In this document: piece after piece, positions 8,343 to 16,520 of the stretch
Position numbering within the stretch: the first letter of the stretch is position 1
Layout: each line of letters begins with the position of its first letter
DNA from: a virus
Direction: 5' to 3' (one strand)
DNA length: 20,402 bases
Virus genome (UHGV): UHGV-0166854
The notes under the pieces: model-generated
What the model was told of the DNA's origin: nothing
What the model saw: the letters and a program-made list of their open reading frames with translations, nothing else
The model's database searches: none
Made by a program: the position numbers and the translations under genes

Positions 8343-8412
8343 AAACGCCGCCGGTGCTGAAACTTGCTTTCAGTGCTGGCGGGGTTGAACAACTCGCACC
8401 GCGAGGCGCTAG
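8343..8412 (+). repeat. Direct repeat copy 1 (about 70 bp) containing a 15-bp-stem hairpin (8348-8382)
   Basis: Sequence aacgccgccggtgctgaaacttgctttcagtgctggcggggttgaacaa... directly after the DinI-like stop; a second copy lies at 8750-8819. Confidence 0.6.
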
Positions 8413-8536
8413 TTCTTCCTCTCAAAGTTTCTCGATGTTTTATTGGTTACACACCAGTGATGAATGGGACGTTACCTTAGCGGGTTTTATAGTGGCGCTG
8501 TGGCAGCACTAAATAAAATTCATTGAGGGCGATAAT

Positions 8537-8746
8537 ATGCATCGACTACCGGGCGAAATTCCGCAGCACAAAACTAAAAGCATCAAACTGATGGCCATCG
8601 TTCATCGTCTGCAGCAGATAATGGTCAATGAGAATTTGACACCCGCCGAGCTGGTCGGGTGTGCCGAAATAGTCAGGGATAATTACGGCACGCTGGATAG
8701 CATCAGCAAGCCGACATATTACTCACCGCCACCACGTCGACCATAG
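8537..8746 (+). CDS. Hypothetical small protein (69 aa)
   Basis: GAGGG RBS about 7 nt upstream of ATG 8537; followed immediately by repeat copy 2. Confidence 0.45.
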   Translation: MHRLPGEIPQHKTKSIKLMAIVHRLQQIMVNENLTPAELVGCAEIVRDNYGTLDSISKPTYYSPPPRRP

Positions 8747-8749
8747 ATA

Positions 8750-8819
8750 ACGCCGCCGGAGCTGAAACTCGATTTCAGGTCTGGCGGGGTTGAACAACGA
8801 GCTACGCGAGGCGTTAGCC
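8750..8819 (+). repeat. Direct repeat copy 2 (about 70 bp) containing the homologous hairpin (8753-8787)
   Basis: aacgccgccggagctgaaactcgatttcaggtctggcggggttgaacaa... ; about 85 percent identical to copy 1, with one compensatory change in the stem. Confidence 0.6.
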
Positions 8820-8879
8820 GGTCATAGCGTCGCAAATACTTCAACCGTCTGCTGGTTAAATAATTCGAGGTTTTTGGAC

Positions 8880-9074
8880 ATGCAAAATCCCCTTTCATCG
8901 AAAAATGACCCGTTTGCCGATTGGGCAAAGAATCTGACTTTAATGGCTTTAAATAACGATCTGAGCTCTCGCGAGGTGGAAAGCTACACCGCAAAAATGG
9001 TCGAGCAGGCCGGTAAAGATGAGCTATCAGTCGTTATCAAACACCTGTTAAATCACATCAGAATGCGCAAATAA
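8880..9074 (+). CDS. Hypothetical small protein (64 aa from ATG 8880)
   Basis: The track ORF 8790-9074 starts inside repeat copy 2; an internal ATG at 8880 with GAGG about 10 nt upstream is the more plausible start. Confidence 0.4.
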   Translation: MQNPLSSKNDPFADWAKNLTLMALNNDLSSREVESYTAKMVEQAGKDELSVVIKHLLNHIRMRK

Positions 9075-9090
9075 GAGGAACTATATAAAT

Positions 9091-9192
9091 ATGTTATCTC
9101 TCGTTTATGAAAATCCGTGGACGACGATTTTTCTGATGATTGTCGCCAGCATGTGCCTCAACAGTGTTATTGGCGCATTGCGCGGCCATTAA
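9091..9192 (+). CDS. Possible 33-aa hydrophobic peptide (MLSLVYENPWTTIFLMIVASMCLNSVIGALRGH)
   Basis: AAGAGGA about 11 nt upstream of ATG 9091; single predicted TM helix; lies immediately before a strong terminator. Below the ORF-track size cutoff; speculative. Confidence 0.25.
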   Translation: MLSLVYENPWTTIFLMIVASMCLNSVIGALRGH

Positions 9193-9214
9193 TCGCGACA
9201 AAACCAGACTAAAA

Positions 9215-9240
9215 CCGGCACCCTGAATGCCGGTTTTTTT
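9215..9240 (+). terminator. Rho-independent terminator (ccggca-ccctgaa-tgccgg followed by T7) ending rightward transcription before cos
   Basis: 6-bp GC-rich stem, 7-nt loop, run of seven T read directly. Confidence 0.65.
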
Positions 9241-9400: not shown

Positions 9401-9419
9401 GGCGTGGCGGGGAAAGCAT
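9401..9419 (+). other. cos cohesive-end sequence of 186/P2-family phages (GGCGTGGCGGGGAAAGCAT)
   Basis: Exact 19-nt match to the cohesive-end sequence I recall for coliphage 186 (P2 differs at two positions). Location between the A/tum region and Q is as expected. Confidence 0.7.
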
Positions 9420-9638: not shown

Positions 9639-10643
9639 CTAATTTACATGTATGTAGAGTTCACCGTCGCCAGACCAATCGGGACACTCTAAAACAAGCC
9701 CAAACTGCTTGAATATTTCATCAATGATTATTGTTATCTCCCGAAAATCACCAAAACCTGTAATGTGCTGGTCATTAAACTTCCCATAAAGATTCTGAAA
9801 AGCAATGCCTAATTCTGATAATTGATATCTTATATTTGAGTTGGATAGTGTAAGGGATAGCTTTGGATCGTATTCTTTAATATTGATGTTTAGAGAATGG
9901 ACATAACCCATCGCATAAGCATAAGAGTTGATGATTAGCCTGATACGTTTTTTTACTTCGAGATACATGTCATTCAGAGAAATATTACCGTACTTATAAC
10001 CCCAGATGAGTTTTTCAATCTCGTCAGATACTTCATTTACAACAGTGTCAAGATTCTCTAAAAATAAATCGATAGTTTCTTGAGGGGCAGACCCCGAAGA
10101 CATGTAATTAGCGAGATATTCAGACCATGCACGCGTGGCTGAGATAAGAAGCGCGCTACCATACTCGTTGACTGTAAAGTTTTGGGCTAAGCATGTTAGT
10201 AAGTTTTTTTCATGTACGTGCACTAATTCATGGTGAATGCGATGGATGACTGCGAGGTATCCTTCTTCTTTCAGTTTTAAGAAGCTACCATCATTGAAAA
10301 GCTCAACAAAAAAATCAATCGATAGCACAAGGGTATATTCTTCACATAGCCCATCATTGCCAATTTTTGTTACTAACTGCCCGACGGCTGCGCCCTGTTT
10401 GCTATTGGTAAATGAACTAGGGGATTTGTGTTGGTAAGAGGATGTTACCTTTTGAAGAGCTTCACTGAAGTTATAGGAAACAATCACGCATTTTAATTTG
10501 GAGATATCAAGATTGAGATTTTTTGTTAAAGCTCGGATAGCTTCTAGTGTGAAATTACCGATATTATTTGCTTCTTGCTCAGTAGCGAAACCTTCGAGGG
10601 TTATTTTAAAATCAGTTTCCAAAATATTAATCTCCGCGCCCAT
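9639..10643 (-). CDS. AT-rich cargo protein (334 aa) with HExxH zincin-like motif (HRIHHELVHVHE); candidate phage-borne defence/exclusion gene
   Basis: Uninterrupted ORF with low-GC, Asn/Ile/Lys-rich composition unlike the flanking phage genes; HELVH encoded at 10218-10232 (checked on the minus strand). Inserted between cos and Q, where P2 and 186 have no gene to my knowledge. Confidence 0.8.
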   Translation of the reverse strand: MGAEINILETDFKITLEGFATEQEANNIGNFTLEAIRALTKNLNLDISKLKCVIVSYNFSEALQKVTSSYQHKSPSSFTNSKQGAAVGQLVTKIGNDGLCEEYTLVLSIDFFVELFNDGSFLKLKEEGYLAVIHRIHHELVHVHEKNLLTCLAQNFTVNEYGSALLISATRAWSEYLANYMSSGSAPQETIDLFLENLDTVVNEVSDEIEKLIWGYKYGNISLNDMYLEVKKRIRLIINSYAYAMGYVHSLNINIKEYDPKLSLTLSNSNIRYQLSELGIAFQNLYGKFNDQHITGFGDFREITIIIDEIFKQFGLVLECPDWSGDGELYIHVN

Positions 10644-16472: not shown

Positions 16473-16520
16473 CCGGTCGCCGTCAGGGTCAAAGCGGGTT
16501 TTGACCCTGACGGCGACCGG
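16473..16520. repeat. Perfect 21-bp-stem inverted repeat (ccggtcgccgtcagggtcaaa ... tttgaccctgacggcgaccgg) in the M-L intergenic region
   Basis: Read directly; loop about 6 nt; no T-run on either side. Confidence 0.7.

Follow-up and report, generated by a model that had tools for sequence, protein, structure and literature searches.

A candidate phiX174-type primosome assembly site, present twice in a P2/186-like prophage and shared with F-like plasmids

Two similar sequences, each able to form a long hairpin and each lying directly after the stop codon of a small gene, are present in the virus genome UHGV-0166854. The question raised by this locus is whether these hairpins operate in the transcript or in the DNA itself, and for what purpose. 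The window examined here is the whole stretch of 20,402 nucleotides, which is a P2/186-like (Eganvirus-type) prophage. Its gene A (5586-7808, plus strand) is an open reading frame for a replication endonuclease, the rolling-circle initiator, whose homologous records carry the description "nicking at origin of replication". Within this gene, the plus-strand sequence GTCCCTCG/GAGTTCTGTCAA (7407-7426, with the slash marking the presumed nick) agrees with the P2 nick site at 17 of 20 bases; the P2 annotation places the origin nick at 29892, inside GCGCCTCG/GAGTCCTGTCAA, also on the plus strand. Further along are a perfect LexA box, TACTGTATAAATATACAGTA (7883-7902), tumA (7922-8104), a tumB-like gene of the DinI family (8108-8341, plus strand; Pfam DinI match, E = 7e-24) and an orf37/orf92-like small gene of phrog_11386 (8537-8746, plus strand). 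Two small ORFs separate the orf37-like gene from a t95b-like terminator at about 9211-9240. The cos sequence GGCGTGGCGGGGAAAGCAT occupies 9401-9419, and past it a cargo ORF, the portal gene and the terminase gene are encoded on the minus strand.

A repeat search aligns 8344-8412 with 8749-8817 as direct repeats of 69 nt that are 86% identical and spaced by 405 nt. A covariance model, R1, recovers each as a plus-strand unit of 71 nt that resembles a primosome assembly site (pas), with copy 1 at 8342-8412 (79.1 bits) and copy 2 at 8747-8817 (84.4 bits), and detects none besides these two anywhere in the window. The units lie 0 and 5 nt past their respective stop codons, namely the TAA at 8339-8341 that closes the dinI/tumB frame (8108-8341) and the TAG at 8744-8746 that closes the orf37-like frame (8537-8746). 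The first-pass annotation, which described direct repeats of about 85% identity that start within a few nucleotides of a stop codon, was accurate on these points. Its coordinates, 8343-8412 and 8750-8819, are off by 1-3 nt, and its placement of the repeat end at GGCGGGGTTGAACAA does not hold, as the repeat runs about 22 nt further.

In both copies a 30-nt tail follows a 19-bp hairpin. The hairpin of copy 1 (P1, 8344-8386, plus strand), which folds as RNA and as DNA, comprises an AAC/GTT clamp (8344-8346 with 8384-8386), a G.G mismatch and a 15-bp stem (8348-8362 with 8368-8382) that includes four G.U pairs and is capped by the loop CTTGC (8363-8367). The hairpin of copy 2 (8749-8791, plus strand) has the same architecture, with a stem formed by 8753-8767 and 8773-8787 and the loop CTCGA, but it has 14 pairs and one G.G mismatch, located where copy 1 has the G.U pair adjacent to U8355.G8375. 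The earlier statement that each copy folds into a 15-bp stem is therefore correct for copy 1 and slightly generous for copy 2. The compensatory change from a U-G to an A-U pair that it listed is real, with U8355.G8375 replaced by A8760-U8780. The tails, GGTTGAACAACTCGCACCGCGAGGCGCTAG in copy 1 (8383-8412, plus strand) and GGTTGAACAACGAGCTACGCGAGGCGTTAG in copy 2 (8788-8817, plus strand), share an invariant GGUUGAACAAC directly 3' of the hairpin. Copy 2 matches the consensus of its family perfectly, with no tail mismatches, and the tail of copy 1 departs from this consensus at three positions (T8394 and C8395 in place of G and A, and C8409 in place of T).

The two strands are not equivalent in folding. 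RNA folds of copies 1 and 2 have energies of -39.4 and -37.7 kcal/mol for the plus strand, versus -33.2 and -30.1 kcal/mol for the minus strand, with z-scores of -4.1 and -4.5 versus -2.6 and -2.5. The plus-strand preference expected from the G-U pairs is thus borne out, and DNA parameters give the same order (-21.2 and -24.4 versus -18.2 and -15.4 kcal/mol). Neither hairpin is followed on its 3' side by a U/T run and a terminator scan flags neither copy, in agreement with the earlier view that these are not classical intrinsic terminators. An intrinsic terminator on the plus strand was rejected for lack of the U run; on the minus strand the flank is U-rich, but the wobbles turn into A.C mismatches.

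The unit is not peculiar to this prophage. It is present at more than 300 P2/186-like phage loci across Enterobacterales; 66 Peduoviridae records carry it, as do 479 of 5426 E. coli genomes, with one or two copies in each. Pattern scans of IMG/VR and GTDB add more than 230 loci, which yield 130 distinct variants. All organism-labelled matches, which come from GTDB genomes, belong to Enterobacterales, and the hosts span Enterobacteriaceae, Erwiniaceae and Yersiniaceae. An unbiased set of 80 loci, picked via DinI and hence independent of the element, carries it in 78 of 79 cases. Throughout the family a stop codon is followed after a few nucleotides by AAC, the hairpin, and a tail of the form GGTTGAACAACGAGC-NNN-GCGAGGCGTTAG, and the hairpin itself is hypervariable in sequence, with an A/T-rich top and a loop that is mostly of the CUNG type. 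Because the unit is conserved in hundreds of other replicons, the resemblance of the two window copies is far beyond chance. Where a locus has two copies, the tail of the upstream one is decaying (two to five changes, compared with three in copy 1 of the window) and the downstream one is perfect. Phage 186 has its copy between orf97 and t95b, at 1.8 kb downstream from the annotated ori, and these 72 nt are the only stretch over which the window and 186 are homologous. In phage P2 itself no copy is present, so that the element is accessory, and dispensable for the P2 mode of replication. The reference records of 186, PSP3, WPhi and R100 leave it unannotated.

Comparison of 41 non-redundant copies provides strong evidence for the hairpin. 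Compensatory double changes occur at 13 of the 17 pairs, and 91.4% of cells are paired, compared with 36-50% when partners are slid by one to three columns; none of 500 shuffles reached the observed pairing. The pairing is thus conserved in homologs, as the first-pass annotation had proposed to establish, and further copies exist in other replicons. The hairpin is also specific to one DNA strand. Among 123 distinct hairpins the plus strand is the stabler in 105 (means of -23.3 versus -16.8 kcal/mol), with 200 G.U pairs as opposed to 27 A.C mismatches. For the DinI-anchored set, pairwise identity of the hairpin is 64%, equal to that of dinI third codon positions (64%), and identity of the tail is 95%, equal to that of dinI codon positions 1 and 2 (95%). 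The hairpin sequence therefore drifts at about the synonymous-site rate while its pairing is kept. The presence of the element in 78 of 79 DinI loci, the near-identity of the tail and the range of three host families together imply that a host factor is involved.

The genes that surround the element in phages are diverse. ORFs upstream belong to seven unrelated families, with DinI accounting for about three quarters (165 of 216), and those downstream fall into 28 unrelated clusters. Across all seven upstream families, a stop codon lies 41 nt 5' of GGTTGAA in 162 of approximately 220 instances. A gene of the phrog_2100 family often starts 2-3 nt past the tail, whose GAGG is then its ribosome-binding site and lies 8 nt 5' of the ATG in 44 of 158 distinct contexts. 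The invariance of the tail also extends to loci that lack the phrog_2100 gene or any following ORF, and a terminator is found within 120 nt of the element in 58 of 186 contexts. The orf37-like gene and copy 2 form a single unit with sharp ends that is about 80% identical in P2-type phages. The element sits at sharp mosaic boundaries in the Tum/DinI region, where a duplicated module boundary had been offered as one reading of the repeats. The frame antisense to dinI is open, which renders a crude classifier of the upstream coding strand uninformative for the phage contexts. The phage region around the element is a known P2 defence hotspot (PMC9122126), and the literature on that hotspot does not mention the element.

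A clue to function comes from phiX174. Model R1, although built from P2-like phage copies only, matches phiX174 at 2306-2371 on the plus strand, in the F-G intergenic region, with a score of 45.4 bits and an E-value of about 1e-11. We take this segment to be the mapped n' (PriA) primosome assembly site; Shlomai and Kornberg reportedly found in 1980 that the F-G intergenic hairpin is recognised by protein n' (PriA). Phage G4, which is primed by primase, reaches at best 7.4 bits with R1, and its origin is annotated as primase-only, so that it serves as a natural negative control: sites of the G4 type need primase alone and go unmatched by the model. An alignment of the phage copies with phiX174 (A4) reveals the common frame ATAACGCCG...hairpin...GGGGTTGA(A/C)CAA...GCG..AGG, and the tail is common to copy 2 of the window, F-like plasmids and phiX174. 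In phiX174, as here, (A/T)AACGCCG leads into a hairpin of about 16-19 bp with an A/T-rich top, GGGGTTGA(A/C)CAA...GCG..AGG follows, the unit measures about 66-71 nt, and the structured strand is one that exists as single-stranded DNA. There are also differences. The phiX174 tail is shorter and diverged, with GACCAAGCGAAGCGCGGTAGG in place of the GAACAACGAGCNNNGCGAGGCGTTAG seen here, and the unit begins 22 nt past the upstream stop codon rather than 0-5 nt. Furthermore, the phiX174 site serves conversion of an infecting single strand to the replicative form, whereas the role proposed here concerns the displaced strand of a double-stranded DNA phage.

Other primosome assembly sites can be compared with the element in the same manner. 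The hexamer AAGCGG, reportedly common to n' sites and of doubtful diagnostic value, is present in phiX174 as GAAGCGG within the 5' arm; it is absent from both window copies and occurs in only some family members, as GAAGCGAGG. ColE1 contains a weak relative at 1533-1605, whose R1 score of 11.7 bits is not significant alone. Its second, small hairpin is fully Watson-Crick (GCCC-GTCA-GGGC), which supports the existence of a small second hairpin in the tail. Known plasmid sites of the n'-pas/ssi class include rri/ssiA and ssiB of ColE1 and pBR322, and ssi signals of F and R100 were reportedly described by Nomura and colleagues in 1991. Like the present element, n'-pas/ssi sites are strand-specific hairpins of single-stranded DNA that become exposed by displacement or transfer and start complementary- or lagging-strand synthesis (PMC3167613, PMC7690428). 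The Frpo-type ssi sequences (ssiD and ssiE) constitute a different class, since they are 300-nt promoters for RNA polymerase. On phiX174 DNA coated with SSB, pas hairpins bring PriA, PriB and DnaT to load DnaB (PMC5778457), and the n'-pas of ColE1, exposed by leading-strand extension, initiates lagging-strand synthesis (PMC3167613).

F-like plasmids carry true copies of the window element. A blastn search of PLSDB with copy 2 matched 1610 plasmids, mostly via the tail alone, and a search with the R100 version returned at least 5000 plasmid records with 7734 places, mainly in conjugative IncF plasmids. Two complete copies are found in R100. The first follows traT (65.5 bits), and the second (56.3 bits) abuts the stop codon of a DUF2726 gene just upstream of repA2. 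The IncF copies occupy fixed backbone positions and are not cassettes. In eight plasmid contexts (the two copies of R100 and those of pO157, pTZSL81-KPC, pEA35_1, pB-4548_1, pCys-1 and pCY16A), all flanking genes, namely traT, traD, finO, hha, repA2 and repA, run antisense to the structured strand, without an exception among the eight. The plasmid hairpins covary too, and their G.T wobbles lie on the element's own strand, the one antisense to the genes. Genes of the leading region are transcribed from the incoming single strand (bioRxiv 10.1101/2023.02.15.528439). Since psiB and ssb, which belong to the leading region, are encoded opposite to the element, and the element shares its strand with a nic-like TGTGT/GGTGCT located between the SLT gene and traM, the element's strand on the plasmids is the T-strand.

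The structured strand is thus the T-strand in 8/8 plasmid contexts, the virion strand in phiX174 and the strand bearing the nick sequence in the window. It tracks single-strandedness and not transcription, which indicates a DNA signal rather than an RNA signal. We therefore consider that each repeat is probably a primosome assembly site of the phiX174 type (an n'/factor Y/PriA recognition site, also known as a single-strand initiation signal) that acts as single-stranded DNA and not as RNA. The plus-strand preference, which appears as G.U pairing when the sequence is folded as RNA, is best read as marking the strand that is single-stranded in replication, because each G.U is equally a G.T in single-stranded DNA. 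The first-pass annotation was right to regard the element as structured and strand-specific. Its suggestion that the element works as plus-strand RNA (a processing site, an attenuator or a protein-binding motif) is not supported, given the antisense plasmid copies and the phiX174 match. Most likely, this is a known kind of element in a new place, with copies in P2/186-like phages and on the T-strand of F-like plasmids.

How such sites might be used by the prophage can be outlined from its replication genes. From the nick-site sequence at 7407-7426, the distances downstream to the two copies, which share its strand, are 0.93 and 1.33 kb. We take gpA to nick the plus (coding) strand, as the P2 literature and the parallel with phiX174 gpA suggest; plus-strand nicking by P2 gpA was reportedly described by Liu and Haggard-Ljungquist in 1994. 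In the window, the gpA nick in the plus strand would fall within gene A, near 7414/7415, and rolling-circle synthesis would displace this strand rightwards, such that the region 0.9-1.3 kb past the nick becomes single-stranded and coated with SSB. The hairpin and the conserved 30-nt tail might remain folded as a fork-like structure to which PriA could bind and, with PriB, DnaT and DnaC, load DnaB, whereupon DnaG would prime lagging-strand synthesis on the displaced strand. These predicted sites would then engage PriA, load a primosome and take part in phage replication in a way analogous to the exposure of the ColE1 n'-pas by leading-strand extension. Copy 2 is best read as an intact site and copy 1 as one that has kept its hairpin while its tail decays, as would be expected if a replicon needs only one good site. 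Two features are not explained by this model: DNA priming does not obviously require the constant spacing of about 0-5 nt from the stop codon across seven ORF families, and it gives no account of why the tail supplies a ribosome-binding site.

These two features leave room for a role in mRNA. The element could be a plus-strand component of the transcript of the SOS (tum/dinI) operon or an early operon, as its sole or second function, with the hairpin located at the point of ribosome termination to act as an exonuclease barrier, an RNase site or a pause hairpin, and with the single-stranded tail bearing a Shine-Dalgarno sequence for the next cistron. The fixed 41-nt distance from stop codon to GGTTGAA and the position of GAGG before phrog_2100 genes fit this scheme, as does the orientation of the phage elements, which is always sense, although in phages the sense strand is confounded with the displaced strand. 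In addition, the change of GA to UC in elements of the copy 1 type converts a tandem G.A mini-hairpin (CGAGC-NNN-GCGAG) to a fully Watson-Crick one, and the tail fits what we take to be the consensus pause register, GG-N8-YG. Nonetheless, an RNA function does not account for plasmid copies that are antisense in all eight contexts and whose wobbles still favor that strand, or for a homolog that acts in the single-stranded virion DNA of phiX174. The tail is invariant even where no ORF follows and a terminator is often close by, t95b of phage 186 still ends the p95 transcript downstream of the element, and Rfam holds no match to it. REP/BIME sequences, T7 RNase III sites and lambda sib are likewise stable hairpins, repeated and located right after stop codons in operons, and act in the transcript; the present element differs from them in being antisense to plasmid genes and homologous to a DNA replication signal. 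We thus regard the mRNA reading as unlikely. Somewhat less doubtful, though still tentative, is dual use, whereby a PriA assembly site on displaced or transferred single-stranded DNA might also serve as a fixed-geometry mRNA module in the SOS-operon transcript. Such a module, possible but far from assured, would combine a hairpin at the terminating ribosome with a tail that offers a ribosome-binding site to any next gene. If true, dual use would explain the stop-codon spacing in seven families and the cassette-like edges at the entrance of the P2 defence hotspot, and would link SOS induction, the start of the lagging strand and the expression or exchange of cargo in one sequence.

Other explanations draw on the mosaic setting or on the hairpin alone. 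The element might chiefly link modules for recombination or mark their boundary, as a homology anchor through which ORF-plus-element cassettes and cargo are swapped at the P2 hotspot near cos. The restriction of window-186 homology to the element, the sharply bounded orf37 and copy 2 unit of P2-type phages, the 28 unrelated downstream gene clusters and the location in a defence hotspot (PMC9122126) are all consistent with this idea. It is nevertheless very unlikely as the selected function, because it leaves unaccounted for the compensatory evolution of the hairpin, the strand-specific wobbles, the nonsynonymous-like conservation of the tail, the fixed, non-cassette positions in IncF plasmids and the phiX174 homolog; homology anchoring is a plausible by-product of the conservation. 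A terminator of non-canonical or partial type, or an antiterminator site resembling put, nut or ops, is suggested by the strength of the hairpin, by its position in phage 186, which is that of the partial terminator t95a, and by GGCGTTAG, which is one base off the ops sequence GGCGGTAG. This we find hardly credible: the hairpin lacks a U tract, termination in 186 occurs downstream at t95b, the element is often at the ends of operons, its plasmid copies are antisense to the flanking genes, and the ops mismatch falls at what is presumably the base contacted by RfaH. Integron attC sites are likewise strand-specific folding sites of single-stranded DNA directly after cassette ORFs, with a GTTRRRY-like 3' motif, and the element shares with them the ORF-plus-hairpin units, a hairpin that begins at the stop codon, a variable sequence with a conserved structure, and GTTGAAC, which agrees with the GTTRRRY core. 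Yet the 5' inverse core RYYYAAC is reduced to AAC, with AAC/GTT as the only pairing, the top strand folds and is favored by the wobbles whereas attC sites fold as bottom strands, no IntI-type integrase is present, a long invariant tail (28 nt) follows GTT, and the IncF copies hold fixed backbone positions. An attC-like site for the capture of ORF cassettes is scarcely conceivable.

Additional candidates were considered and set aside. At the gathering score, Rfam yields no matches in the window, and an E-value search of 8300-8900 gives only a chance match to mir-998 (E = 0.53). By-eye comparison of the element with boxA, ops/RfaH, put-like antitermination sites, the DnaA box and IHF sites found no match, nor did the same comparison with Ter, Chi, hammerhead and K-turn motifs. 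The RfaH ops element, GGCGGTAG(NN)TG in the leader of long operons, was rejected since GGCGTTAG has T for G5, and the boxA of rrn and lambda (GCUCUUUAACAA) since its CUCUU core is missing. Protein coding through the tail is incompatible with indels of 6-8 nt in the variable block that break all frames, and stop-codon read-through with a downstream frame that is unconserved. A sigma-70 promoter in the tail would have TTGAAC followed after 17-18 nt by no -10 element, and a scan found no promoter-like site. A pseudoknot between the P1 loop (CUNGN) and GCGAG is non-complementary in about 20% of loops, and CUNG is better seen as a stable loop type. No convincing pairing partner for the tail was found within the window, and complementarity of the tail to the immunity RNA of satellite P4 scores no better than shuffles. 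Readings of the element as a stabiliser of mRNA or an RNase target, as a site of pausing or antitermination, as a 3'-UTR sRNA or as an attC-like DNA site were each judged not compelling.

The reassignment of a putative RNA motif to a DNA replication signal illustrates that strand-specific "G-U" evidence can mislead. The comparative data provide what is apparently the first family-level definition of this pas type, as a freely covarying hairpin joined to a nearly invariant 30-nt 3' tail, and they make the old question of which features PriA recognises in a pas directly testable. A DNA covariance model could be used to annotate the element in replicon records. On F-like plasmids, the copies that follow traT or directly precede the RepFIIA control region are candidate starts for complementary-strand synthesis in recipients. 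Initiation of the lagging strand in the P2/186-like family is usually ascribed to the phage protein B together with DnaB and DnaG. Many P2/186-like phages, P2 itself not among them, appear to bear a PriA-type pas approximately 1-2 kb past the gpA nick, and for these phages the prediction is that DnaB loading for lagging-strand synthesis would be PriA dependent.

A perfect LexA box (TACTGTATAAATATACAGTA, positions 7883-7902) lies within a promoter of the p95 type, ahead of tumA and tumB, and therefore both copies of the element in the window reside within an SOS-induced operon. The final open reading frame of this operon, ahead of its terminator, is a plus-strand ORF of 33 codons at 9091-9192 whose predicted product (MLSLVYENPWTTIFLMIVASMCLNSVIGALRGH) is strongly hydrophobic. 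No match to this ORF was found in Pfam or PHROG, and its product is a possible toxin or small membrane peptide.

Among 79 loci selected by the presence of dinI, only one (L320, IMGVR_UViG_3300029067_000006) lacks the element after the dinI stop codon, with unrelated sequence taking its place. In many loci (L316, L306, L310, L315, L161 and others), a conserved gene family of 85-88 codons, phrog_2100, is positioned directly 3′ of the element, and encodes a protein with the motif MGxKDxNYQVVYRG...GGWVFFQRPKECGGGYW. Its ATG begins 2-3 nucleotides past the conserved tail, such that the GAGG of the tail serves as the Shine-Dalgarno sequence. The gene is frequently truncated or missing after the element, and none is present in the window. 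In some loci (L101 and relatives) a UmuD-like gene is found 3′ of the element, while Klebsiella elements adjoin retron-type reverse transcriptases, located either before the element (L006) or after it on the opposite strand (L328). The UmuD-like gene and the reverse transcriptases exemplify cargo swapped precisely at the 3′ boundary of the tail.

An ORF of 334 codons on the minus strand of the window (phrog_11743, 9639-10643) is flanked by cos and the portal gene, at the site known as the cargo and defence hotspot of phage P2; searches of Pfam and PADLOC returned no match for it. An invariant octamer of the tail, GCGAGGCG (8401-8408 and 8806-8813), recurs without mismatch within the P2/P4 cohesive end, GGCGAGGCGGGG... 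(position 2 of L326). The cos of the window carries GCGTGGCG instead of this octamer, and the identity is probably due to chance. Elsewhere in the window, a G+C-rich hairpin between two late-gene ORFs (16478-16515) matches the hairpin portion alone of our covariance model at 16 bits; it probably represents a terminator or intergenic hairpin that has no relation to the element.

A weak relative of the element (11.7 bits) occurs on the minus strand of ColE1 (L339, 1533-1605), in the region of a ColE1/pBR322 factor Y site. Its layout is a hairpin followed by GACAA, GCCC-GTCA-GGGC and GCGTCAG. All pairs of this second mini-hairpin are Watson-Crick, which supports the presence of a small second hairpin in the tail of the family.

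At least 5000 PLSDB records match the element. F-like plasmids (R100, L330; also L331-L336) carry two full copies on the transferred strand, which in R100 map to the minus strand at 28295-28366 and 41010-41084 of the locus (75295-75366 and 88010-88084 of the record). One of the two is positioned after traT. The other directly follows the end of a DUF2726 gene, whose stop codon it adjoins, a short way upstream of the control region of RepFIIA. If priming occurred at this latter copy, the repA2-repA-oriR region would become duplex first.
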